From: an uncultured Pseudomonadales bacterium
Lineage (GTDB): Bacteria > Patescibacteriota > Microgenomatia > UBA1400 > PJMF01
Assembly: GCA_964556485.1 (NCBI GenBank)
Contig: CAZKVV010000004.1
Location: forward strand, 57,618 to 121,617
Length of the DNA: 64,000 nucleotides
Reading direction: 5' to 3'
This document shows, in pieces, positions 709-21,824 of the stretch (position 1 is its first letter; each line of letters starts with the position of its first letter). A program made the position numbers and the translations under genes. The notes below the pieces were generated by a model, which saw nothing but the letters and a program-made list of their open reading frames with translations, did no database searches and was not told the DNA's origin.

Positions 709-2355
709 TTATGGAGTGTCTTGCAGAAGTGACTGAGCAGTTTTTCGTAGTGCAGCCACGGACTCATTACCTGGAACCAACGCTTCAAGCTGTTGTAGAT
801 ATGTTTCAGCTAAGTCTTGATTTTTTTGTTGAGCGTACAAGAGTATCAGCGGTTGGTAGGCATACATAAAGTGAGGATCGATTTCTAAAGCCGCGGTGTA
901 TTCGACTAAAGCTTCAGTAATTTGACCTTGGGCAACATATGCCTGTGCAAGGTTGTAGTGAGTTTGTGGGTAGGTGTCAGTGATGGAAAGCGATTTTTTA
1001 TACTCTTCAACAGCTTTTTGTGTTTGACCTTTATCTGCGTATGACATTGCAAGGTTGTTACGCAGCCTGGCAGTCTCTGAGTGTGAAAGTGTGTAGGAAT
1101 AAAATCGAATAGCATTTCCCCAAAGGTAGTTTTGTCGAAGGGTAAGTAGTACATATATTGAAAAAAGAATGGCGAGAATTGGGGTTTTCAATTTTAAAAT
1201 AATTATTGTGAGATTTTTTGGCAAAAGCTGAAACATACCATAGCAACAGATCAGTACTCCAACCAGCGGGGTGTATAACCAATGTTCATAAAACATGCCA
1301 TTTACTGGTAGTACTCCAGATACAGGACCAAGCAGGGCAAAAAACCAGTAGGTTCCGAACCAAATCCAGATTGCTTGTTTTTTTTGTAGCTCTTTTAAAC
1401 CAAGTAGAAAAAGTACCGCTATACCAACCGTCGAAGCTATGACTGCAGGATGAAGTGCGGTGGTAATGACAGAGATGGATCTTTCCATATGCAGTGGGAA
1501 TGGAACTAAGATGAGTTTTAGATACAGCCAGAGGCTTGCTGCAAAGGTGAAAATTCTCACCAATACGCTGTCTCCATATTCAGAACCCGCGTAGTAGTTA
1601 ATAAATGGACCTAGGTTAACAAAGTAGTGTCGCAGTAAAAAGTAGGCACCAACACTCAGAGCTATAAGTGAAATGGTGGCAAATTGATAACGGGTATTTT
1701 TTGACGTGGCTTTTGATTTGGTATGAATCTTCTGAAGCAGTAGTACAGCAGGGAAGAGCAGCAAACCACCCAGCGCAATTTCTTTTGCTAGGACTGCACA
1801 AATAAAGGTAGATACGGTTCCAAGCAGCAGCTGCCACTTTTGTACAGTGAAGCTAATGTTATACAAAGCGAGAGTACTTTTTTTAGTTCTTAGAAGTAGA
1901 GAAAACAGAAAAAGGCTGGTAAAAAGCCAAAAAGCATACTGTGAATCTCCACGTGAATTTGCATACACAACAGACTCGGTTTGGAGTGGATGAGCAATAA
2001 ATACTGCAGCGATAGTGAGCGCATATTTTTTACGAATGCCAATTTCAGTCAAAAACAGGAATAGCAAAACTGCAGCGAAAGCATGGAGTAGTGTATTGGT
2101 CAGGTGAAAGCCAATCGGGTTGTTCCCCCAAATTTGATAGTCGAACGCAAAACTAAGAGTGGTAAGCGGGCGGTAATATTGGCTTATCTCACCCGCGCCA
2201 GCAATGGTGTTTTGAGTAACGATATTTTTGACGTCAAAAGCTTTGACGTAGGTGTTGTTATAAATAAATTGTTCATCATCCCAGAAAAGATCATTATTGA
2301 ATGACGGCAGATAAAGAAAAAAAGCAAATCCGAGAAGTAACAAACAATAACGCAT
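709..2355 (-). CDS. Polytopic membrane protein with C-terminal TPR repeats (PMT/GT39- or O-antigen-ligase-like N-terminal membrane domain)
   Basis: About 400 aa with multiple hydrophobic helices followed by TPR-like repeats (AYVAQGQITEALVEY, AYQPLILLYAQQ). Overlapping small ORFs in other frames are judged spurious. Confidence 0.5.
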   Translation of the reverse strand: MRYCLLLLGFAFFLYLPSFNNDLFWDDEQFIYNNTYVKAFDVKNIVTQNTIAGAGEISQYYRPLTTLSFAFDYQIWGNNPIGFHLTNTLLHAFAAVLLFLFLTEIGIRKKYALTIAAVFIAHPLQTESVVYANSRGDSQYAFWLFTSLFLFSLLLRTKKSTLALYNISFTVQKWQLLLGTVSTFICAVLAKEIALGGLLLFPAVLLLQKIHTKSKATSKNTRYQFATISLIALSVGAYFLLRHYFVNLGPFINYYAGSEYGDSVLVRIFTFAASLWLYLKLILVPFPLHMERSISVITTALHPAVIASTVGIAVLFLLGLKELQKKQAIWIWFGTYWFFALLGPVSGVLPVNGMFYEHWLYTPLVGVLICCYGMFQLLPKNLTIIILKLKTPILAILFSIYVLLTLRQNYLWGNAIRFYSYTLSHSETARLRNNLAMSYADKGQTQKAVEEYKKSLSITDTYPQTHYNLAQAYVAQGQITEALVEYTAALEIDPHFMYAYQPLILLYAQQKNQDLAETYLQQLEALVPGNESVAALRKTAQSLLQDTP

Positions 2356-2404
2356 GCTACTAGCATACCAGTTTGTTTGCCCAAAATTGAAATTGTATTG
2401 TGGT

Positions 2405-2442
2405 AAAAAAAAGAGCTACAAGTTTTTTTGAACTTGTAGCTC
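2405..2442 (-). terminator. Intrinsic terminator of cassette 1 (GAGCTACAAGTT ... AACTTGTAGCTC plus U-tract on minus strand)
   Basis: Perfect 12-bp inverted repeat followed by an A8 run on the plus strand (U-tract on the minus transcript), immediately after the stop of the 2449-2778 gene. Confidence 0.7.
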
Positions 2443-2448
2443 GAAATT

Positions 2449-2778
2449 TTATTCTGTTTTGTCAGTTGTATCCGTTTTTTTGGTCATTATTATGACCGAA
2501 AGTCGAATTATGTACATGACGTATATCATCAAGCACACAACTGCGACAAATACAAAATACAAACCAAATAAAACAAGCAAACCTCCAACTCCAAGGAGAT
2601 AATAGCAGTCCTTGATGTTTTGTTTTGCTTTCTCATTTCTGCTGTTGGGTGTGCTTTTAATTTCATTCACCCAGATGATTAAATCTACCACTCCTGTTAG
2701 CAGGAATGGAAAGCTGAAGAGTGTGAAAAAAAAGTGTAACGCTTCCATCCACTCTGGTCCAAAAAATAAAGGTATCAT
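2449..2778 (-). CDS. Small membrane protein, paralog 1 of 3 (MIPLFFGPEW family, ~110 aa)
   Basis: Start placed at internal MIPLFFGPEW, which aligns with the starts of paralogs 2 and 3 and sits 8 nt after an AAGGAG RBS. The upstream part of the 170-aa track ORF is the conserved leader, not coding. Hydrophobic core and conserved C-terminus IIRLSVIIMTKKTD..KTE. Confidence 0.6.
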   Translation of the reverse strand: MIPLFFGPEWMEALHFFFTLFSFPFLLTGVVDLIIWVNEIKSTPNSRNEKAKQNIKDCYYLLGVGGLLVLFGLYFVFVAVVCLMIYVMYIIRLSVIIMTKKTDTTDKTE

Positions 2779-2930
2779 TTTTTTCGCTCCTTGCGATTTT
2801 TTGATGAGTTCGACTGACTGACAGAGAATTATGCAAAACACTATCACAACCCTGCTTGAGGGTGGATACTGTTTAGCTTGTTCTCTGCAAGAGATATTAA
2901 GGTGCGGTGTTTGTTGTCTTCCAAACCCAA
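2779..2930 (-). promoter_or_regulatory. Conserved ~150-nt transcribed leader of cassette 1 (candidate cis-regulatory RNA)
   Basis: Near-identical to the leader of cassette 2 (core ACACCGCACCUUAAUAUCUCUUGCAGAGAACAAGCUAAACAGUAUCCACCCU-loop-AGGGUUGUGAUAGUG). The loop sequence differs between copies while the CCCU/AGGG stem is kept. Confidence 0.4.
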
Positions 2931-2932
2931 TA

Positions 2933-2961
2933 ATTATACCATAAAAGACCATATTTTGCAA
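2933..2961 (-). promoter_or_regulatory. Sigma70-like promoter of cassette 1 (TTGCAA-17-TATAAT on minus strand)
   Basis: Minus-strand sequence TTGCAAaatatggtcttttatggTATAAT with a 17-nt spacer. Confidence 0.6.
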
Positions 2962-3005
2962 GTTATAGGACTAAAAATTAATGCTTCGTGCGGTTGGTTG
3001 CGTTA

Positions 3006-3074
3006 TAAAAAAACGAGCTACAAGTTTTATGATGCTTAGGGGTTGAAAACCCATCAGCATGCTACTTGTAGCTC
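3006..3074 (-). terminator. Intrinsic terminator of cassette 2 (same GAGCTACAAGT stem, larger loop)
   Basis: CGAGCTACAAGT...ACTTGTAGCTC inverted repeat with an A7 run on the plus strand, immediately after the stop of the 3080-3397 gene. Confidence 0.65.
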
Positions 3075-3079
3075 TAATT

Positions 3080-3397
3080 TTATTCTGTCTTGTCAAAGTC
3101 GCTTTTGTCAGTCATTATGATGACCGACAATCTGATGATGTACGCAAAATAAATCGATGCGCACAAAAAACCTATAAAGATCACATAGATTCCAAACAGC
3201 GACATCAACATTCCAGCTACCATGTAGCCAAAAAATGTATTTATGTTTTCTTTCACCTCTTTACTGGGACGATGTTTATATTCATCTACCCATACTTTCA
3301 ATCCAACTAGTCCTACAATTAAGGGAACTAGTCCCGAAATTGTTATTCCATAGCTAACTGCATGCAACCATTCTGATCCAAAAATATAAGGAATCAT
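3080..3397 (-). CDS. Small membrane protein, paralog 2 of 3 (MIPYIFGSEW..., 105 aa)
   Basis: ORF with a conserved N-terminus and C-terminus (IIRLSVIIMTDKSDFDKTE) shared with paralog 1. RBS GGAGAG upstream. Confidence 0.65.
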   Translation of the reverse strand: MIPYIFGSEWLHAVSYGITISGLVPLIVGLVGLKVWVDEYKHRPSKEVKENINTFFGYMVAGMLMSLFGIYVIFIGFLCASIYFAYIIRLSVIIMTDKSDFDKTE

Positions 3398-3581
3398 TTT
3401 TCACTCTCCTCGAGTTGATTTTTTGACTTACAAAATTGACAGAGAATTGTGCTAAACACTATAACAATCCCTACATTAGGGTGGATACTGTTTAGCTTGT
3501 TCTCTGCAAGAGATATTAAGGTGCGGTGTTGGGAAGTTCCAGTCTCTTTTCAGAGGTTCTAGTTGTGTTCCAAACCTGGTA

Positions 3582-3610
3582 ATTATACCATAAAAGACCA
3601 CATTTTGCAA
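3582..3610 (-). promoter_or_regulatory. Sigma70-like promoter of cassette 2 (TTGCAA-17-TATAAT)
   Basis: Minus-strand TTGCAAaatgtggtcttttatggTATAAT, nearly identical to the cassette 1 promoter. Confidence 0.6.
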
Positions 3611-3654
3611 GTTATAGGACTAAAATACATTCTTCATGCGGTTGGATCTGTTCT

Positions 3655-3693
3655 AGAAAAAAAAGAGCTACAAGTATCATAATACTTGTAGCT
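3655..3693 (-). terminator. Intrinsic terminator of cassette 3
   Basis: GAGCTACAAGTAT-cat-AATACTTGTAGCTC inverted repeat preceded by an A10 run on the plus strand (U-tract on the minus transcript). Confidence 0.65.
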
Positions 3694-3714
3694 CGAAATG
3701 TTACACTTTGCCAA

Positions 3715-3990
3715 TCAGGATCGTACCTTCTTCACTAGAAGGTATCCTAGAAAAAATAAGATAGCAATAGGAATTATATAGATTCCTAAAAAGCATATTG
3801 CCAGACCCAGACAAATGAAAAACAGACCTTCTGAAATATGCTTATTCGCCGCAAGACTGTCTGTTTTTAGTTTTGGTAGCCATACTAGCAGTCTCCCAAT
3901 ACCAAACACTCCAGCAACTATTAGTCCTATTGTAGAAATAAAATTGTGGAATGGCTCAAGCCATTCCGGTCCAAAAAATAATGGAATCAT
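3715..3990 (-). CDS. Small membrane protein, paralog 3 of 3 (MIPLFFGPEWLEPF..., 91 aa)
   Basis: Shares the MIPLFFGPEW N-terminus with the other two paralogs and is hydrophobic. RBS AAAGGAG 7 nt upstream. Confidence 0.6.
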   Translation of the reverse strand: MIPLFFGPEWLEPFHNFISTIGLIVAGVFGIGRLLVWLPKLKTDSLAANKHISEGLFFICLGLAICFLGIYIIPIAILFFLGYLLVKKVRS

Positions 3991-4092
3991 TTTTCACGCT
4001 CCTTTAATTTTTTTTGATTGACAGTGAATTAATGTGCTTTGTTTAGAAGTTACTATTTTGTAAAAGGGAGTAGTTGTCTTCCAAACATGCCG

Positions 4093-4121
4093 ATTGTACC
4101 ATGAAAGACCACTTTTTGTGA
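4093..4121 (-). promoter_or_regulatory. Weaker sigma70-like promoter of cassette 3 (TCACAA-17-TACAAT)
   Basis: Minus-strand TCACAAaaagtggtctttcatggTACAAT. The leader is shorter and diverged from cassettes 1 and 2. Confidence 0.4.
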
Positions 4122-4146
4122 GTTATAGGATTAAATAATAAAGTTG

Positions 4147-4219
4147 TGGTCGCTACAGGACTCGAACCTGTGACAACCGCAATGTGAATGCGGTGCTCTA
4201 CCAACTGAGCTAAGCGACC
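4147..4219 (-). tRNA. tRNA-Val (anticodon CAC)
   Basis: Minus-strand sequence GGUCGCUUAGCUCAGUUGGUAGAGCACCGCAUUCACAUUGCGGUUGUCACAGGUUCGAGUCCUGUAGCGACCA folds as a cloverleaf. Anticodon loop UUCACAU. CCA is not encoded. Confidence 0.85.
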
Positions 4220-4220
4220 A

Positions 4221-5291
4221 TTAGAGGAGATTATACTCCTTCAATACCATTTCTACATCTGCAGCAGAGTTTGCAGTAAACAATTTTGCTCTCACTTCTT
4301 TTGCAGCATCAAAGCCCCTGCAGTACCAGCCCAAATGTTTACGCATTGGCATAAACGAGTATCTTTCCCAGTTGCCGTACGTTTGTTCAAACAGTTGGCT
4401 ATGTTCGACTGCGATCTGAAAGAGTGTAGGTGAATCACTTGGCTTAGTAGTACAAAAGATGAATGGATTGCCAAAACTTGCTCTTCCAATCAGTACACCG
4501 TCAAGTTGGTACATGTCGATTTTATTTTTAGCATCTTCTAAACTTGCAATGTCACCATTCCCCAGAAGTTTGATTTTTGAGTTTTTGACAACCTGTGCGG
4601 CGATCCCGATTTGATCCCAGCTTGCAAAACCAGAGTACTGTTGTTTGAGAGTTCTGCCATGGAGGGCAATTGCCGCAGGTTCAAGCTCAAGCAAAGTTGG
4701 TATCCATTCTTCAATAACTGGTTTGTCATATCCAATTCGAGTTTTAATTGAAACAGGTATGCTTTTTTCGGCCTGGTGTTCTGCAGGAAGCAACGCATGT
4801 CTTTTTTCAATTTCACGCACAATTTTGGGACTAATATCACTGCAGTCCTTTGTTCTTTTGCCATTTGCATAATCCTCAACGCCAGCTTTGACCGCGATAA
4901 CGATTTGGCATGCAAGATCGGGGTTTTTAATCAGCGCAGCACCCGCACCAGAGCTAGCAACTGTTTTGGCAGGACAGCCCATGTTGATATCGATGCCATC
5001 AAATCCGAGTTCACAGAGCAGCGTTGCCGCTTGTCTGAAGTACAGTGGTGTGGTGCCATAAATTTGGGCAATTATTTTTCGTTGTGACTCATCATATAAA
5101 AAGTCTGTGAGGAGTTTTTCTGCGCCATGGCACAGGCCTTCAACATTTGTAAATTCAGTATAGATCAGATCTGGATTGCCGTATTTTTTTTGAATATGTC
5201 TGTATGGATGATCTGTTACACCATCCATTGGAGAAAGTCCGATGATTGGAGCAGAAAATGATTGCCAGAGTTGTTGTTCACTTTTAGTCAC
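4221..5291 (-). CDS. dus: tRNA-dihydrouridine synthase (Dus family)
   Basis: Motifs SPMDGVTD, FDGIDINMGCP and KTRIG are typical of the Dus FMN-binding TIM barrel. Located 1 nt from tRNA-Val. Confidence 0.85.
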   Translation of the reverse strand: MTKSEQQLWQSFSAPIIGLSPMDGVTDHPYRHIQKKYGNPDLIYTEFTNVEGLCHGAEKLLTDFLYDESQRKIIAQIYGTTPLYFRQAATLLCELGFDGIDINMGCPAKTVASSGAGAALIKNPDLACQIVIAVKAGVEDYANGKRTKDCSDISPKIVREIEKRHALLPAEHQAEKSIPVSIKTRIGYDKPVIEEWIPTLLELEPAAIALHGRTLKQQYSGFASWDQIGIAAQVVKNSKIKLLGNGDIASLEDAKNKIDMYQLDGVLIGRASFGNPFIFCTTKPSDSPTLFQIAVEHSQLFEQTYGNWERYSFMPMRKHLGWYCRGFDAAKEVRAKLFTANSAADVEMVLKEYNLL

Positions 5292-6985
5292 GAGGTATTA
5301 TACCCTGACAAGTAAACCCAGGTGTCATCTGTAATAGTTGCTCTTCTTTTTTCCAAAATGGTTTTAAACTGTTGAAGTATCGCGACCGCTTGAGATTGCG
5401 TAGTTTGTGCCATGGTGAGCATTCTGAGTAGTTCATAACGAGTAAAGGGAGAGGAGATGTATCCAAGTTGGTAGAGCGTTGTGACCTCACGGGTGAGTGT
5501 TGCAAATGAAATTATTTTCCGTATGTCAGAAGTGTTTGATTTTGAATAGGTAATTTCAAATAACTGTGGCTGAGTGCCAAACATGCCAGTCAAGTTTTCA
5601 ATCTGTACGCTTCCATCTTGAGTGTAGAAATAGACAGTAACGTTGTAGGGTGACAACGGTTGGCCACTCAACTCAAGGACGTATTCACCACTTTCTGGTT
5701 TTGCAAATTCGTATGTTACCACCTTTGGTTTTGGTTGTTTCGTTTCCAGACTTTGGAAGTCCTCAGTTTCAGTCACAAGTGGCAGCAGGTCATTTTGTTT
5801 TTTGAGTGTTATAGATGTGTCCGTATTTGTTGCAAAAAGCAGGTAGCTTAAATCGGTAAAACTGGGGGTGAAGGTTCTTAGTGAAAGTGGTGCGTCAAGA
5901 TGCTCGCTTAGTTTGGTGTAGGAATACCCTGGGTCATTAATATAAATGTCTGTTTGTTCATCAGTATTGCTTGACATGCCAGTTGCAACCACAAAATGAC
6001 TGGGAATGTGCACTATGGTAGGTTGCTGGGCATTGAGTTGCTCAGTGAGGGTAGTGGTGATGTTTTGCAGCACACGTTTGAACTCAAGTTTAGGGCTGCC
6101 AAACTGTTCACTCAGCTCGCGGCTGAGTCTGGTAGCAGCAAGCCAATTTACGTTTCCATCTGGAATATAGCCATCTGGTTGGGAGAGTAACCAGTTGTTG
6201 AATGTTGCTGGAGTGATGGGCGTGCCATCAGCAAAATGTGTCAGGCCGTAGTACTGAAAAAGCATGGTCAGTGAGGTAAGCGCACATCCCCATCGACCAA
6301 TGGTGGGTGGCTCCGTCAAGCTCCACGCGGTCGCTAAGTCATACTCATTCTCAGACCACTGTGGATCGGTCTGTTTAATGAGCGGTACTGCAAGATTTGA
6401 GGTGGTTTCTATGGTTTCAACCAGCACATTATCAATGGCAATTTTTGTTGGCACCACACTGCCTGTTCCAGCTTTAATACCGACTTTGCCATAGTTGTTG
6501 TTGAAGGTGGGGTCAATCTGAGTAAAAAAGTGTTGATCATTGATGCTCAGTGAAATGGTTGCTCCCTGAAGCGTGATTTCAATATGGTGCGTATTTCCAT
6601 TAGGAATGCTCACCCCATGCCGCACTGACCAAGGCACTGTACCGTTTTGTACTCTCACCAACTCAACGTTTCCTCCAGCAAAGTGCAGTTCATACCAATT
6701 ATTCAGGTTCTCAAAGTGAAAAGAAATGTTCTTATCAATCCCGGCTAAGCCGGTGAAGTCGAGAGAGTAGCGAATGTCTTGCCAGTTTTCATTCCAGTAG
6801 GCATCTTTTGGTATCAATTCAGTAACAGTAAATGGAGTAAGGACTTCGGCGACTGCTGTTCCATCTTGTATAGTCCAGTAGCTGCCATCATCTCTGGTTG
6901 CTTCCCACTTGGTGAAGTCTTGAGAAAAATCGTCAAAGAAAACAGTAGCTGCAACTGCTGGTCGAGTAGAACCGAGCAAAAGCAT
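5288..6985 (-). CDS. Secreted protein with C39-like (papain-fold, PF13529-type) peptidase domain and N-terminal beta-rich, lectin-like domain
   Basis: Motif RWGCALTSLTMLFQYYG matches the C39_2 catalytic-Cys region CGPTSLAMVLxYYG. N-terminal hydrophobic signal-like segment. Start set at ATG 6985 (MLLLGS...) to avoid overlap with the divergent methyltransferase. An upstream alternative start is possible. Confidence 0.5.
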   Translation of the reverse strand: MLLLGSTRPAVAATVFFDDFSQDFTKWEATRDDGSYWTIQDGTAVAEVLTPFTVTELIPKDAYWNENWQDIRYSLDFTGLAGIDKNISFHFENLNNWYELHFAGGNVELVRVQNGTVPWSVRHGVSIPNGNTHHIEITLQGATISLSINDQHFFTQIDPTFNNNYGKVGIKAGTGSVVPTKIAIDNVLVETIETTSNLAVPLIKQTDPQWSENEYDLATAWSLTEPPTIGRWGCALTSLTMLFQYYGLTHFADGTPITPATFNNWLLSQPDGYIPDGNVNWLAATRLSRELSEQFGSPKLEFKRVLQNITTTLTEQLNAQQPTIVHIPSHFVVATGMSSNTDEQTDIYINDPGYSYTKLSEHLDAPLSLRTFTPSFTDLSYLLFATNTDTSITLKKQNDLLPLVTETEDFQSLETKQPKPKVVTYEFAKPESGEYVLELSGQPLSPYNVTVYFYTQDGSVQIENLTGMFGTQPQLFEITYSKSNTSDIRKIISFATLTREVTTLYQLGYISSPFTRYELLRMLTMAQTTQSQAVAILQQFKTILEKRRATITDDTWVYLSGYNTS

Positions 6986-7060
6986 ACCAATGAGCGAAAT
7001 GCTGGTAATCAGTTTGATAATCAGTTTTTGACTGCAACTGTAGTAAAATGCACTCGAGAT

Positions 7061-7792
7061 ATGAATACACTTGAATCGTTTTATAATCGTTATCACGCCA
7101 AAAATGCCTTCTTTTTTAAAACTATTGATGCTTCTAACTGCACCTACTTTTATATTCTGCAACTCTTACAACAAGCTGACGCACTCACTGGTGCAACAGT
7201 ACTCGATTTGGGCTGTGGAGTTGGCGCAGTTTCGTTTTTTATGGCTCAACATGGTGCAAAGGCCGTAATTGGTCTTGATGTATCAAGTAGAGCCATTGGT
7301 ATTGCCCAGGCGGCACAGCAACAAGTTCAGCAACCAAACTTGATCTTTAAGTGTGGCGAGCTGGTTACAAAGATGCATGGTTTTGACACCATTTTTTGTA
7401 GTGAAGTTATTGAACATGTGAAAGATGATGCCCATTTTTTAGATGTCATACACTCAAATTTGAAAGTGGGCGGCACACTCATTTTAACGACACCTTCAAA
7501 AGAAAATGTACTTTTTAAACTGGGATTTTATCGCTCTTTTGATTCAGAAGTTGGCCATTATCGACGCTACACTAAAGAATCATTGCAGCAATTACTCAAA
7601 GCACACGGTTTTGATGTCAAGAGTATTCGAGCTGTTGAAGGTCCATTGCGTAATATTCTCTACACCACAAAACTAGGTTTCCTGATTCGATTTATTAGAG
7701 GTCCTCTGGTCCCTGTATTTCATTTTTTTGACAGCATTTCTGCACAACTTTTTGGCGCCAGTGACATTCAAGTCATTGCAAAAAAAATATGA
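7061..7792 (+). CDS. Class I SAM-dependent methyltransferase
   Basis: Motif I VLDLGCGVGAVS and post-I GGTLILTTP. Start set at the internal ATG (MNTLESF...). The 5' part of the track ORF overlaps the convergent gene and is judged non-coding. Confidence 0.7.
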   Translation: MNTLESFYNRYHAKNAFFFKTIDASNCTYFYILQLLQQADALTGATVLDLGCGVGAVSFFMAQHGAKAVIGLDVSSRAIGIAQAAQQQVQQPNLIFKCGELVTKMHGFDTIFCSEVIEHVKDDAHFLDVIHSNLKVGGTLILTTPSKENVLFKLGFYRSFDSEVGHYRRYTKESLQQLLKAHGFDVKSIRAVEGPLRNILYTTKLGFLIRFIRGPLVPVFHFFDSISAQLFGASDIQVIAKKI

Positions 7793-20666: not shown

Positions 20667-20699
20667 ATAAAAAAATACCCAAGTTGGGTATTTTTTTTG
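20667..20699. terminator. Bidirectional intrinsic terminator (AAAAAAATACCCAAGTTGGGTATTTTTTTT)
   Basis: Perfect TACCCAA/TTGGGTA hairpin flanked by A7 and T8 runs, between the 19797-20528 gene (+) and tRNA-Ser (-). Confidence 0.6.
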
Positions 20700-20782
20700 C
20701 GGAGAGCGAGGGATTCGAACCCACGGGCCCCGAAGGGCGCGGTTTTCAAGACCGATGCGATTGACCACTCTGCCAGCTCTCC
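20700..20782 (-). tRNA. tRNA-Ser (anticodon UGA), class II with long variable arm
   Basis: Minus-strand GGAGAGCUGGCAGAGUGG...CGGUCUUGAAAACCGC...GCCCUUCGGGGC...GGGUUCGAAUCCCUCGCUCUCCG. Anticodon loop CUUGAAA. One U-U mismatch in the T stem. Confidence 0.8.
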
Positions 20783-20839
20783 ACGTGACAAGGGGTACAT
20801 TATAACCTTCCTTGTCTACTTTTTCGAGTCTCTTTTATA

Positions 20840-21595
20840 GTGTACACTTTACATATGGATAGTAATTCTCAACCAACATCACTGTTCGCAAACTCACCGG
20901 GTGTTGTGGTGTCAAATAATCCTGGTGGTGTACTGCCGATTCAACCTGCCCAACCTATACAATCACCTGCGCAAACACAACCAACCCAACAGATCCGAGA
21001 ATCGCAAGTTGTCCAACCAAGCCAGTCACTTCCCACAAACATCAGCGCGGATGAAGATGACTTGAACAACTATGAATATCAATCTATTTTTCCAGATTAT
21101 ATGAGACCAACACAAGAAGAATTAATTTTTGAGTGGCGCGCGGACAGCAGACCATTTAAAAAGCATAAGCGTAATTTTTATACTACTGGGACTGTAATTG
21201 TAGTGCTCATTTCTCTTATTCTTTTCTTCTCAGGTCAATTTTTACCTATCGCAGTGGTCATCGCAGTAACCTTTCTTGCTTACGTGTTAACCTCGATACC
21301 ACCTCAAGAAATCACTTATCAAGTTACCACGTTTGGCGTCCGTATCGAAGACAAATTGTATGAATGGGATCTGATGAACCGTTTTTGGTTTACCGAAAAA
21401 TACAGTCAAGAATTGGTGCACGTTGAAGTTGCGCAATTTCCAGAACGCCTCACACTTGTGCTAGGTGCAACCAGCAAAGATATCATTGCAGCACTTTTTT
21501 CGGAGGTGTTAATTATGCAAACGCCCGCACCAACAATCTATGAACGAGTTGCAGCTTGGTTACAAGAAAAAATCCCTCTAGATCTCGATTCATAA
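20840..21595 (+). CDS. Hypothetical membrane protein (Q/P-rich N-terminus, 2 TM helices, C-terminal PH-like region)
   Basis: ORF with a hydrophobic hairpin VIVVLISLILFF...IAVVIAVTFLAYVL. Confidence 0.5.
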   Translation: MYTLHMDSNSQPTSLFANSPGVVVSNNPGGVLPIQPAQPIQSPAQTQPTQQIRESQVVQPSQSLPTNISADEDDLNNYEYQSIFPDYMRPTQEELIFEWRADSRPFKKHKRNFYTTGTVIVVLISLILFFSGQFLPIAVVIAVTFLAYVLTSIPPQEITYQVTTFGVRIEDKLYEWDLMNRFWFTEKYSQELVHVEVAQFPERLTLVLGATSKDIIAALFSEVLIMQTPAPTIYERVAAWLQEKIPLDLDS

Positions 21596-21617
21596 ACGTC
21601 ATTTCATTTGGTATAAT
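21589..21617 (+). promoter_or_regulatory. Sigma70-like promoter for the tRNA-Arg/tRNA-Ser pair (TTCATA-17-TATAAT)
   Basis: TTCATAaacgtcatttcatttggTATAAT ends 14 nt before the tRNA-Arg 5' end. Confidence 0.5.
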
Positions 21618-21631
21618 ATGAGCTTGTTATC

Positions 21632-21705
21632 GCGTCCATAGCTCAGTTGGATAGAGCATCAGTTTGCGGAATTGAAGGTCGCAGGTTCGAGCCCTGCTGG
21701 GCGCA
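21632..21705 (+). tRNA. tRNA-Arg with anticodon GCG
   Basis: GCGUCCAUAGCUCAGUUGGAUAGAGCAUCAGUUUGCGGAAUUGAAGGUCGCAGGUUCGAGCCCUGCUGGGCGCA aligns arm-for-arm with E. coli tRNA-Arg(ACG). Anticodon loop UUGCGGA. Confidence 0.75.
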
Positions 21706-21735
21706 CAACTTTTATTGAATTTCCCACAACTTCCT

Positions 21736-21824
21736 GGAGGGATGTCGGAGCGGTTTAACGGCCAGCTCTCGAAAAGCTTGGGGGACTCTGTCCCACGGGG
21801 GTTCGAATCCCCCTCCCTCCGCCA
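21736..21824 (+). tRNA. tRNA-Ser (anticodon CGA), class II, CCA encoded
   Basis: GGAGGGAUGUCGGAGCGGUUUAACGGCCAGCUCUCGAAAAGCU...GGGGGACUCUGUCCCAC GGGGGUUCGAAUCCCCCUCCCUCCGCCA. Anticodon loop CUCGAAA. Confidence 0.85.

Follow-up and report, generated by a model that had tools for sequence, protein, structure and literature searches.

Three small-gene units lie head-to-tail in tandem on the minus strand at positions 2405-4145 of the window, by which we mean the whole 64,000-nucleotide stretch of DNA analysed, and their non-coding parts resemble one another more closely than do their coding parts. The question raised by this locus is whether the promoters, leaders and terminators have stayed alike because the units were copied recently, or because these parts have a function of their own. 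Each unit is complete in itself, with a promoter, a leader, a Shine-Dalgarno (SD) sequence, an open reading frame and a terminator; these promoters, and likewise the transcript ends and folds given below, are sequence predictions. The features, named from the tRNA side as units A, B and C, are:

2405-4145, minus strand: whole array (units A, B and C), between tRNA-Val and a PMT/TPR glycosyltransferase gene
4146-4219, minus strand: tRNA-Val (anticodon CAC); unit A begins at most 20 nt from the tRNA 3' end
3651-4145, minus strand: unit A, 495 nt
4093-4129, minus strand: putative promoter of unit A; CCTATAA box at 4123-4129, -35 CTCACA at 4117-4122, TG-extended -10 TACAAT at 4093-4098
3991-4086, minus strand: leader of unit A; GCACAUUAA box within 4029-4040, without a 5'-UTR hairpin
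4014-4027, minus strand: 5' element of the predicted long-range pairing of unit A (UCACUGUCAAUCAA); p=0.002 against shuffles
3715-3990, minus strand: ORF A, 91 aa; diverges most among the three copies and has a shorter C-terminus
3703-3718, minus strand: 3' element of the long-range pairing of unit A (CUGAUUGGCAAAGUGU), overlapping the stop codon
3657-3694, minus strand: predicted terminator of unit A; 13-bp stem GAGCUACAAGUAU, then U8
3011-3650, minus strand: unit B, 640 nt
3582-3618, minus strand: putative promoter of unit B; CCTATAA box, -35 TTGCAA at 3605-3610, TG-extended -10 TATAAT at 3582-3587
3425-3528, minus strand: 5'-UTR motif of unit B; GCACCUUAA box and long hairpin (proper 3439-3508), covariance model score 89.8 bits
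3423-3446, minus strand: 5' pairing partner of unit B, immediately 3' of the hairpin
3080-3397, minus strand: ORF B, 105 aa; AF2 model with pLDDT 84
3087-3110, minus strand: 3' pairing partner of unit B, within the last codons (...DFDKTE); p=0.008
3007-3074, minus strand: predicted terminator of unit B; basal stem GAGCUACAAGU as in the other units, plus an extra inner hairpin
2396-3010, minus strand: unit C, 615 nt
2933-2969, minus strand: putative promoter of unit C; CCTATAA box, -35 TTGCAA at 2956-2961, TG-extended -10 TATAAT at 2933-2938
2807-2909, minus strand: 5'-UTR motif of unit C; GCACCUUAA box and long hairpin (proper 2821-2889), covariance model score 82.6 bits
2812-2826, minus strand: 5' pairing partner of unit C
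2449-2778, minus strand: ORF C, 109 aa; ATG at 2778, SD AAGGAG
2452-2467, minus strand: 3' pairing partner of unit C (AACUGACAAAACAGAA), in the last codons; p=0.004
2405-2442, minus strand: predicted terminator of unit C; stem GAGCUACAAGUU, then U8

A preliminary description of this DNA had placed three self-contained cassettes head-to-tail on the minus strand beside tRNA-Val, and its layout was borne out: the array lies directly downstream of tRNA-Val(CAC), and promoter, leader, SD, ORF and terminator are present in each unit. The promoter given there for its units 1 and 2 (our B and C), TTGCAA-17-TATAAT, was recovered with a TG extension, and that of unit A, CTCACA-18-TACAAT, is predicted to be weaker. 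The proposed N-terminus MIP(L/Y)(F/I)FG(P/S)EW was seen in all three ORFs. The proposed common C-terminus, IIRLSVIIMT(K/D)K..D.KTE, holds for units B and C and fails for unit A, which ends in ...YLLVKKVRS. The common terminator stem GAGCTACAAGT was also found as described, its six occurrences making up three hairpins; it has no exact copy elsewhere in the 64 kb, and at one mismatch it gave 7 matches against 1.05 expected. Terminator-like sites numbered 9 against 1.7 expected. The branched terminator of unit B resembles those of the homologues described below, and of the hairpin the leader of unit A has kept just one strand of basal stem P1, the 3' one (UUCACUGU). In a scan of the 64-kb window, promoter and leader motifs were confined to the array locus. 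In a public protein set, ORF C is represented by a 167-aa form starting at a TTG at 2961, inside the promoter.

Alignment of the units showed promoter, leader, ORF ends and terminator all conserved across A, B and C, and the homology extends over the whole length of the units, flanks included, as in a paralogue array arising by tandem segmental duplication. Tandem Repeats Finder did not detect the array, because its period exceeds 500 nt and the copies have diverged. An expanded repeat created during assembly is implausible: nothing favours it except the repeated structure as such, and the units are unequal in length, their aligned coding parts mismatch at about 34% of positions, and the exact repeats they share are at most 70 nt long, the longest near-identical runs being about 60-70 nt.

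The array is flanked by dus, tRNA-Val, the PMT glycosyltransferase gene and comF. Three relatives (L001, L009 and L011) have the order dus-tRNA-Val-PMT/TPR-comF with no array between tRNA-Val and the PMT/TPR gene, the gap between the two being 24 nt in L001. As the closest relatives found have the glycosyltransferase gene directly after tRNA-Val, the array is a lineage-specific insertion. A tRNA-integrated element was considered and rejected, since the 64-kb window contains no second, att-like copy of the tRNA 3' end. An integron gene cassette was likewise rejected, each unit having a strong promoter of its own and the annotated neighbourhood containing no integrase.

The duplication itself is not recent. 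The three proteins share 28-46% identity, with 48 of 105 residues (46%) identical between B and C, and for this pair synonymous differences are saturated (pS 0.72, dS approximately 2.4), with dN 0.46 and dN/dS approximately 0.2. Synonymous saturation and the low dN/dS therefore indicate an old duplication and proteins under purifying rather than diversifying selection. The three copies are an old, diverged tandem triplication of one monocistronic gene. Against this background the non-coding parts of B and C stand out, the promoters being identical at 43 of 45 positions, the leader cores 95-100% and the flanks 89-96% identical, and the few differences between the leaders cluster in the apical loop of the hairpin, where 4 of 5 loop bases have changed. 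The preliminary description had ascribed this conservation to recent duplication or gene conversion in a diversifying family of immunity, holin-like or stress peptides. The gap between flank and protein identity speaks for that view, as does a holin-family match below threshold (18.6 bits, cut-off 28.4). It is nevertheless very unlikely and already largely refuted: synonymous sites are saturated, selection is purifying, the differences in the conserved leader pile up in the hairpin loop, no lysin, phage or bacteriocin context exists, and the same flanking elements are conserved around distant homologues, where the gene is single-copy and conversion between copies is therefore impossible. There is a small chance that gene conversion acted on the 5' part of units B and C only. 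Retention of the non-coding elements around homologues of 22-31% protein identity, together with the loop-clustered differences, points instead to constraint on RNA structure.

The proteins had been described as small membrane proteins, and the modelling supports this. Two hydrophobic blocks are followed by a charged C-terminal tail, and the AF2 model (pLDDT 84) has helices at 10-42, 46-68 and 70-96 with a kink at an invariant Gly; the product is thus modelled as a helical-hairpin membrane protein of about 100 aa. No match above threshold was obtained for the array proteins in Pfam, NCBIfam, PADLOC or PHROGs, and Foldseek against the PDB returned generic helical hairpins and designed coiled coils only. 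A holin was rejected: the best match, Phage_holin_3_6 (18.6 bits as above), was obtained for one copy only, there is no lysis-cassette or phage context among the neighbours named above, and no lysis or bacteriocin genes occur in the annotated neighbourhood. The search for relatives in other genomes suggested in the preliminary description proved productive. A word-indexed protein search found the window's own three proteins only, and few matches with an enlarged profile, but a full HMMER search yielded 10 further proteins of about 100 aa (96-109 aa) as full-length matches. All three array ORFs match the family HMM, and in a set of 1.8 billion representative proteins the family accounts for only about 13 clusters. 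The 10 homologues outside the window are each single-copy, lie on unrelated contigs of metagenomic genomes, show 22-31% protein identity and have varied contexts; the cassette L081 adjoins Fic, MazE and PIN genes. The family is rare and undescribed, and occurs in Patescibacteria-type metagenomic genomes. Phage genomes and viral contigs contained neither a protein homologue nor the leader motif, and a peptide-pattern scan of JGI metagenome contigs gave no match. The leader DNA pattern gave 3 matches in the JGI contigs; these have neither covariance-model nor protein support and are most likely due to chance.

Around the distant homologues the same elements recur: the GCACNUUAA box, a long 5'-UTR hairpin, a pairing of 5' with 3' regions and a sequence-conserved terminator stem. 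Of 12 distinct cassettes, 9 carry the hairpin; it is missing from L084, L089 and unit A. RNAalifold predicted 19 pairs, 10 of which show compensatory changes, although the alignment holds 9 sequences and their kinship inflates covariation statistics. In this alignment 94.7% of cells were paired, compared with 81% in shuffles (0 of 500 shuffles as high) and 37-53% when the partner columns were slid. Across 603 kb the covariance model had no matches except upstream of genes of the family, scoring 62-90 bits on the sense and 20-31 bits on the antisense strand. In units B and C the basal stem P1 reads GCAGAGAAC/UUCUCUGU, most homologues having GCAGAGAGC/ACUCUCUGU instead; the upper stems covary, an internal loop of 2 nt opposite A(C)CAA is conserved, and the apical part ranges from about 10 to about 45 nt, being nearly missing in L094 and L082. 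Conservation lies mostly in the paired basal stem, not in junctions or loops. A known riboswitch or leader family was rejected, as no Rfam 15 covariance model matched: a permissive search (E<=1) of the locus and 4 homologue loci gave no leader family, with only tRNAs reaching threshold, and only tRNAs were found in the whole window at the gathering threshold. At E<=0.01, the window region and homologue loci gave tRNAs and one sub-threshold match to the complementary strand of a tRNA; the remaining sub-threshold matches were weak and chance-like. From the comparative evidence, the hairpin is a previously undescribed conserved RNA element, not in Rfam.

The segment just 3' of the hairpin is complementary to (A)ACAGA and its flanks, a box that shortly precedes the terminator, whose stem GAGNUACAAG is conserved in sequence. 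Tested on short segments, RNAduplex with long segments being too noisy, this complementarity exceeded that of shuffles in 8 of 10 cassettes, units A, B and C among them; L082 and L090 showed no significant complementarity. With the conserved core removed, cognate pairs still outscored non-cognate ones (permutation p=1e-4). Full-length minimum free energy folds of unit A, unit C and L094 contain the pairing beside an intact basal stem. Because a single pyrimidine strand is matched by the 3' box as well as by the basal stem's 5' strand, alternative folds are possible. Translation-initiation regions showed no significant local structure (z approximately 0). In unit C, GCACCUU is able to pair with AAGGAGC, and SD pairing was inconsistent among the full-length folds of the cassettes. 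No antisense sigma-70-type promoter was conserved in position across the 12 cassettes or the three units.

The reading we favour, at a probability of roughly 60%, is that each unit is autonomous and that folding of its mRNA governs expression, with type I toxin mRNAs as the closest parallel; the non-coding parts would then owe their conservation to the function that hairpin and 5'-3' pairing have within the mRNA. The transcript would start after the canonical extended -10 promoter and run through the GCACNUUAA box, hairpin, 5' pairing segment, 3' box and terminator stem. The full-length mRNA would close on itself by 5'-3' pairing, and its folding would set translation, stability or both. Type I toxin mRNAs such as hok and aapA1 are silenced in this manner; the product here would then be a membrane-active protein that the cell has to make in tightly limited amounts, and it may be harmful when over-made. 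More tentatively, these cassettes of Patescibacteria may form a new class of membrane-toxin-like genes silenced at the RNA level. The product would be a two-helix protein of about 100 aa, and an undescribed 5'-UTR hairpin would lock the mRNA, rivalling the 3' box in pairing with a single pyrimidine strand (mRNA circularisation); control would be equivalent to that of hok and aapA1, though for a far larger product and perhaps without any antisense partner.

It is unlikely that the array is a true type I toxin-antitoxin locus in triplicate, in which a folding-silenced membrane toxin is paired with a small antisense or trans-encoded RNA antitoxin missed by simple promoter scans. Tandem repeats, hydrophobic product, 5' stem-loop, 5'-3' pairing (significant in the 8 cassettes above) and strong terminator together match the criteria for such loci (PMC8594479), and the sporadic distribution and accessory contexts (the tRNA in the window; Fic, MazE and PIN in L081) would fit as well. 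The proteins, however, have 91, 105 and 109 aa, roughly double the maximum for a class whose toxins measure 20-60 aa (PMC8594479), no consistent anti-SD pairing was seen across members, and an antisense promoter is conserved in no register among the 12 cassettes, nor among the three units.

We consider it quite unlikely that the leader is a sensor (riboswitch, RNA thermometer or protein-binding leader) of a benign small membrane protein, for example a transporter subunit or stress-adaptation protein, with the 5'-3' pairing merely stabilising the mRNA. A covarying structured 5'-UTR specific to one protein family and a conserved internal loop would be expected of a sensor, but Rfam holds no match, conservation is in the basal stem, the apical part varies and is nearly missing in two cassettes, neither a terminator-type nor an SD-occluding expression platform is evident, and unit A either functions without the hairpin or has lost regulation. 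A role at the DNA level is highly improbable, whether as inverted repeats bounding a segment that can flip (phase variation) or as recombination sites of a mobile cassette. Inverted repeats of 13-17 bp do flank SD and ORF in most members, cassette context differs between genomes, and the window's array is an insertion beside a tRNA; yet no recombinase gene lies near any member, the tRNA end is not duplicated, several pairs are G-U, and the repeats lie in an RNA-organised unit, next to a hairpin whose covariance-model score is much greater in the sense than in the antisense direction.

A paralogue array alone would be ordinary; what is new here is an undescribed protein family with an undescribed, covarying mRNA architecture. 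RNA-motif databases gain a new family, for which a covariance model (R1) exists, and paralogues whose non-coding parts are more conserved than their coding parts may flag function at the RNA level rather than recent duplication. Almost nothing is known of post-transcriptional control in the host phylum, and the literature searched describes no type I system there. If the new class is real, it would be the first such RNA-silenced system in the candidate phyla radiation, amplified here to three copies.

Among known systems, Rfam cis-regulatory leaders and riboswitches share with the array a conserved, covarying 5'-UTR structure tied to one gene family, whereas here conservation is in one stem, tied to a partner at the mRNA 3' end. 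Class II holins and other small two-helix membrane proteins are alike in length (about 100 aa), in their two hydrophobic segments and in the charged C-terminal tail; the array differs in lacking an endolysin or phage context and any Pfam, PHROG or phage-genome match at threshold. Tandemly repeated type I loci include ldrA/B/C with the rdl antisense RNAs (the long direct repeats of E. coli K-12), ibs/sib and zorO/orzO. Like the array, they consist of self-contained, intergenic, head-to-tail units of about 0.5 kb, each with promoter, leader, small hydrophobic ORF and terminator; the E. coli copies hardly differ from one another and specify peptides of 35 aa together with antisense RNAs. The array is made of ancient copies (28-46% protein identity) and shows no sign of an antisense RNA.

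Tandem repeats have served as a search criterion for type I loci, whose mRNAs combine SD/anti-SD pairing, 5' stem-loops, terminators and 5'-3' long-distance interactions with tandem repetition (PMC8594479). Known type I toxins have 20-60 aa and mRNAs of 150-400 nt (PMC8594479), compared with 430-590 nt predicted here; hok/Sok of plasmid R1 and aapA1/IsoA1 of Helicobacter pylori encode a single helix, while the array proteins (91-109 aa) have two hydrophobic blocks, and the array differs further in having no detectable antisense RNA gene, conserved SD/anti-SD helix or sequence similarity to them. The hok and aapA1 mRNAs and those predicted for the array are alike in being monocistronic, with a hydrophobic product and a strong promoter of their own, and in having a long 5'-UTR structured by stem-loops, a 5' region that pairs with the 3' end just before the terminator, and possible competing folds (PMC8594479, PMC6733600). 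If folding gates expression here as well, the hok/aapA1 principle would reach far larger membrane proteins, and ultrasmall bacteria.

The array lies on the minus strand directly downstream of tRNA-Val(CAC) and comprises three head-to-tail units (A, B and C), each with a gene for a small membrane protein, which bears out the arrangement given in the preliminary description. The features mapped were:

2396-4145, minus strand, three-unit head-to-tail array
4146-4219, tRNA-Val(CAC), adjoining the array
3651-4145, minus strand, unit A
3715-3990, minus strand, ORF A, 91 aa
3011-3650, minus strand, unit B
3080-3397, minus strand, ORF B, 105 aa
3007-3074, minus strand, unit B terminator with an extra inner hairpin, GGGUUUUCAACCCC
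2396-3010, minus strand, unit C
2449-2778, minus strand, ORF C, 109 aa
4123-4129, 3612-3618 and 2963-2969, minus strand, CCTATAA box immediately 5' of the -35 hexamer in units A, B and C

In all three units a leader and an SD sequence (AAGGAG/GAGGAG) precede the ORF, and the unit closes with a terminator hairpin built on the stem GAGCUACAAGU and trailed by a U-run, which confirms the shared stem reported earlier. A promoter had also been proposed for each unit; those of B and C are TTGCAA-17-TATAAT as described, with a TG extension, whereas that of unit A (CTCACA-18-TACAAT) is weaker. The promoter, leader and terminator motifs have no other occurrence in the 64-kb window, and the build of each unit shows the layout of an autonomous monocistronic transcription unit. 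Unequal unit lengths and divergence at about one third of the aligned coding positions speak against mis-assembly, which appears implausible; an assembly artefact is considered very unlikely. The unit B terminator resembles the branched terminators of four homologue loci in other genomes (L081, L085, L086 and L091), while those of units A and C are simple hairpins. The CCTATAA box also occurs in these four loci with one to two differences (ACTATAA, CCTATAA, CCTATAT), 14-25 nt upstream of the -10 hexamer, and could be an operator or UP-like element.

Unit C is annotated publicly as a 167-aa protein (P0002; 2449-2961, minus strand) that begins at a TTG at 2961, inside the -35 hexamer of the unit C promoter; the true start is almost certainly the ATG at 2778, 9 nt past the SD sequence AAGGAG, giving 109 aa. 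The unit C leader has no in-frame stop (compare the 167-aa annotated form). The A/B and B/C spacers (3622-3661 and 2974-3013, plus-strand coordinates) have CCAACCGCAYGAAG...TTTTAGTCC in common, a block similar to ACCGCACCTTAAT of the leader. It is missing between tRNA-Val and unit A and after unit C; the duplicated unit therefore spanned this spacer through the terminator.

Upstream, the tRNA is flanked by dus (dihydrouridine synthase); downstream, the array is followed by a gene for a PMT-type glycosyltransferase with TPR repeats and then by comF. The closest relatives of the Dus protein (52-63% identity) were from MAGs of Patescibacteria/Woesebacteria type that retain dus-tRNA-Val. Over the set of L001-L012 and many of L013-L080, the pair dus then tRNA-Val(CAC) is kept in nine of the ten closest loci in which tRNAs were sought. 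In one relative, L001, the order is dus, tRNA-Val, PMT/TPR, comF, with 24 nt separating the tRNA from the PMT gene; in L009 and L011 these genes recur in a slightly different order. A scan with the family HMM found a family member encoded in none of the 80 Dus-relative loci, and the 1.75-kb array is for this reason a lineage-specific insertion 3' of the tRNA. Its far border is not marked by a duplicate of the tRNA 3' end.

Several further observations concern this neighbourhood. Ahead of the PMT/TPR gene (2355-2400, minus strand), TTTCAA-N16-TGGTATGCT ends 6 nt before the ATG, and a leaderless or nearly leaderless mRNA is suggested; in L001, the 24 nt past tRNA-Val leave no space for a promoter. 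A 624-aa protein with Peptidase_C39_2 and LamG/3-keto-disaccharide-hydrolase-like domains is encoded immediately upstream of dus (5288-7162, minus strand); its identity as an ABC-transporter-type bacteriocin peptidase was rejected, and no link between it and the cassettes was found. A tRNA trio (Ser-UGA, Arg-GCG, Ser-CGA) lies at 20699-21824. No tmRNA was found in the window; in relatives L001, L004 and L006 one lies 1-2.5 kb or less from tRNA-Val. Several TPA MAG records of Patescibacteria type bear the evidently wrong labels 'uncultured Pseudomonadales' or 'Gammaproteobacteria'.

The family proteins had no above-threshold match in Pfam, NCBIfam, PADLOC or PHROG, and among 5.8 billion proteins a word-indexed search retrieved nothing beyond the three window proteins. 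Ten more proteins of 96-109 aa, matched over their full length (E 1e-10 to 9e-4), came from exhaustive profile searching of 1.84 billion representatives with HMMER; they share 22-31% of residues with copy B. The family is small, and its clusters at 50% identity number about 13. Its motifs are N-terminal MIPWIFGxE, LWVPxY, an invariant Gly in FG(L/I/M)Y and, towards the C-terminus, WKS(V/I)xI(M/L). By hydropathy, blocks of about 25-30 and about 45 hydrophobic residues with a K/R-rich loop between them would allow two or three membrane spans. The AlphaFold model of copy B (pLDDT 84) is a helical hairpin (helices 10-42, 46-68 and 70-96) kinked at the invariant Gly; Foldseek against the PDB was uninformative. 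In other genomes the gene is single-copy, with neighbours differing from genome to genome:

L081, 1225-2541, Fic, MazE and PIN toxin-antitoxin genes alongside the homologue
L084, 1-961, homologue directly after a Band_7/SPFH gene
L087, 2310-2354, convergent tRNA at the contig end, about 230 nt from the homologue
L089, photolyase gene
L082, L086 and L090, small unknown ORFs

These contexts are of accessory type, and no common partner gene was found across L081, L084 and L087.

Proteins B and C are identical at 48/105 positions, and A matches B or C at 27-28/88. Synonymous sites between B and C are saturated (proportion of differences 0.72), dN stands at 0.46, and of the 48 identical residues 20 are encoded by differing codons; this makes the duplication old and, with dN/dS at about 0.2, places the proteins under purifying selection. 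Conservation of the non-coding parts far exceeds that of synonymous sites: the promoters of B and C match at 43/45 positions, and a 62-nt and a 34-nt leader stretch are 95% and 88% identical. Within the conserved leader, B and C diverge chiefly in a 5-nt hairpin loop (AAUGU vs CAAGC) whose stems are identical, a pattern that points to constraint on the leader and not to a recent conversion tract. The non-coding elements of the window are also carried in the flanks of the single-copy homologues, despite their low protein identity to copy B. Recent duplication or gene conversion in a diversifying family, as first proposed, is contradicted by this conservation, by the synonymous saturation and by the dN/dS ratio.

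The conserved 5'-UTR elements are a GCAC box, GCACNUUAA, and, downstream of it, a hairpin whose basal stem, P1, is (A)GCAGAGAGC...(A)ACUCUCUGU, conserved in sequence in most homologues and present as GCAGAGAAC...UUCUCUGU in units B and C. P1 is topped by an asymmetric internal loop, with 2 nt facing A(C)CAA, and by upper stems of differing sequence. For an alignment of nine hairpins (units B and C, L081, L082, L085, L086, L090, L091 and L094), RNAalifold predicted 19 pairs, of which 10 show compensatory double changes. Paired cells amounted to 94.7%, against 81% in column shuffles (0/500 reached 94.7%), and fell to 37-53% when partners were slid by 1-3 columns. R1, the covariance model of this motif, matched solely upstream of family genes in 603 kb (window and loci), with 62-90 bits on the sense strand vs 20-31 bits on the antisense strand; Rfam 15 has no family resembling it. 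The hairpin is missing in unit A, L084 and L089, unit A retaining only the 3' strand of P1. The best within-mRNA complement of the GCACNUUAA box is at ORF codons 18-27 (+52 to +82) in L081, L086, L091 and unit C (-9.7 to -11.8 kcal/mol). This is a possible second long-range contact, or may reflect chance or shared ancestry (Gly-Ala codons giving GGUGC).

A stretch of 15-20 nt beginning inside the P1 3' strand is complementary to a box just upstream of the terminator, for example UCUGUUAUUCGGUUU with GAACCGGAUAACAGA in L085. The pairing was significant against shuffles in eight of ten cassettes (A, p=0.002; B, 0.008; C, 0.004) and non-significant in L082 and L090. Its partners covary: UGUCAAUCA/UGAUUGGCA in A, UGUCAA/UUGACA in B and GUCAGU/ACUGAC in C. 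Without the conserved core UCUGU/ACAGA, cognate partners averaged -7.4 vs -4.1 kcal/mol for non-cognate ones (permutation p=1e-4). Full-length MFE folds contain the long-range helix beside an intact P1 in units A and C and L094. In units B and C the 3' box falls within the last codons, and the conserved ...DKTE* is explained by it at the nucleotide level; the C-terminal motif described earlier holds for these two units but not for unit A. In 8/12 cassettes the sequence of the terminator stem, GAGNUACAAG/CUUGUANCUC, is kept while its middle positions covary; the stem sequence conserved across the family is ACAAG/CUUGU.

For the mRNA of each unit, the prediction is a covarying 5' hairpin specific to the family together with a long-range 5'-3' helix. 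The P1 5' strand (GCAGAGAG) and the 3' box ((A)ACAGA...) both match one pyrimidine strand, CUCUCUGUU, so that alternative folds are possible. The full-length mRNA is probably closed on itself through 5'-3' pairing, and its folding probably governs translation and/or stability. All functional statements on the cassettes are computational; we put the probability that mRNA folding controls their expression at roughly 0.6. A ligand-, temperature- or protein-sensing leader is possible, but it is a stem that is conserved, the length of the apical part varies freely and an expression platform is not apparent. Inverted repeats acting at the DNA level, in an inverton or mobile cassette, would covary as well; against them, no recombinase lies near any member, and the model of the neighbouring hairpin strongly favours the sense strand.

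By itself the array is ordinary. Pfam, NCBIfam, PHROGs, PADLOC and Rfam 15 contain no description of the protein family or of the RNA architecture. The cassettes match the combination of features that T1TAdb gives for type I toxin mRNAs (PMC8594479): a hydrophobic product, a 5' stem-loop, a 5'-3' long-distance interaction and a strong terminator. Two further features shared with type I toxin loci are repetition in tandem and a sporadic occurrence in accessory contexts; the hok and aapA1 mRNAs behave in this manner (PMC6733600, PMC5416894). Unlike type I toxins, however, the cassette proteins are about twice the maximal size of the class, and the mRNAs are longer; the 12 distinct cassettes have no conserved antisense promoter, and SD occlusion is not demonstrable in the predicted folds. 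The 12 best matches of a full-text literature search held no link between type I toxins and Patescibacteria. A true toxin or toxin-antitoxin function is rather unlikely. On account of these differences the cassettes are likened to type I toxin mRNAs, as probably working in a similar way, and are not assigned to the class; the known kind to which they relate is that of structured, self-pairing mRNAs for small membrane proteins.
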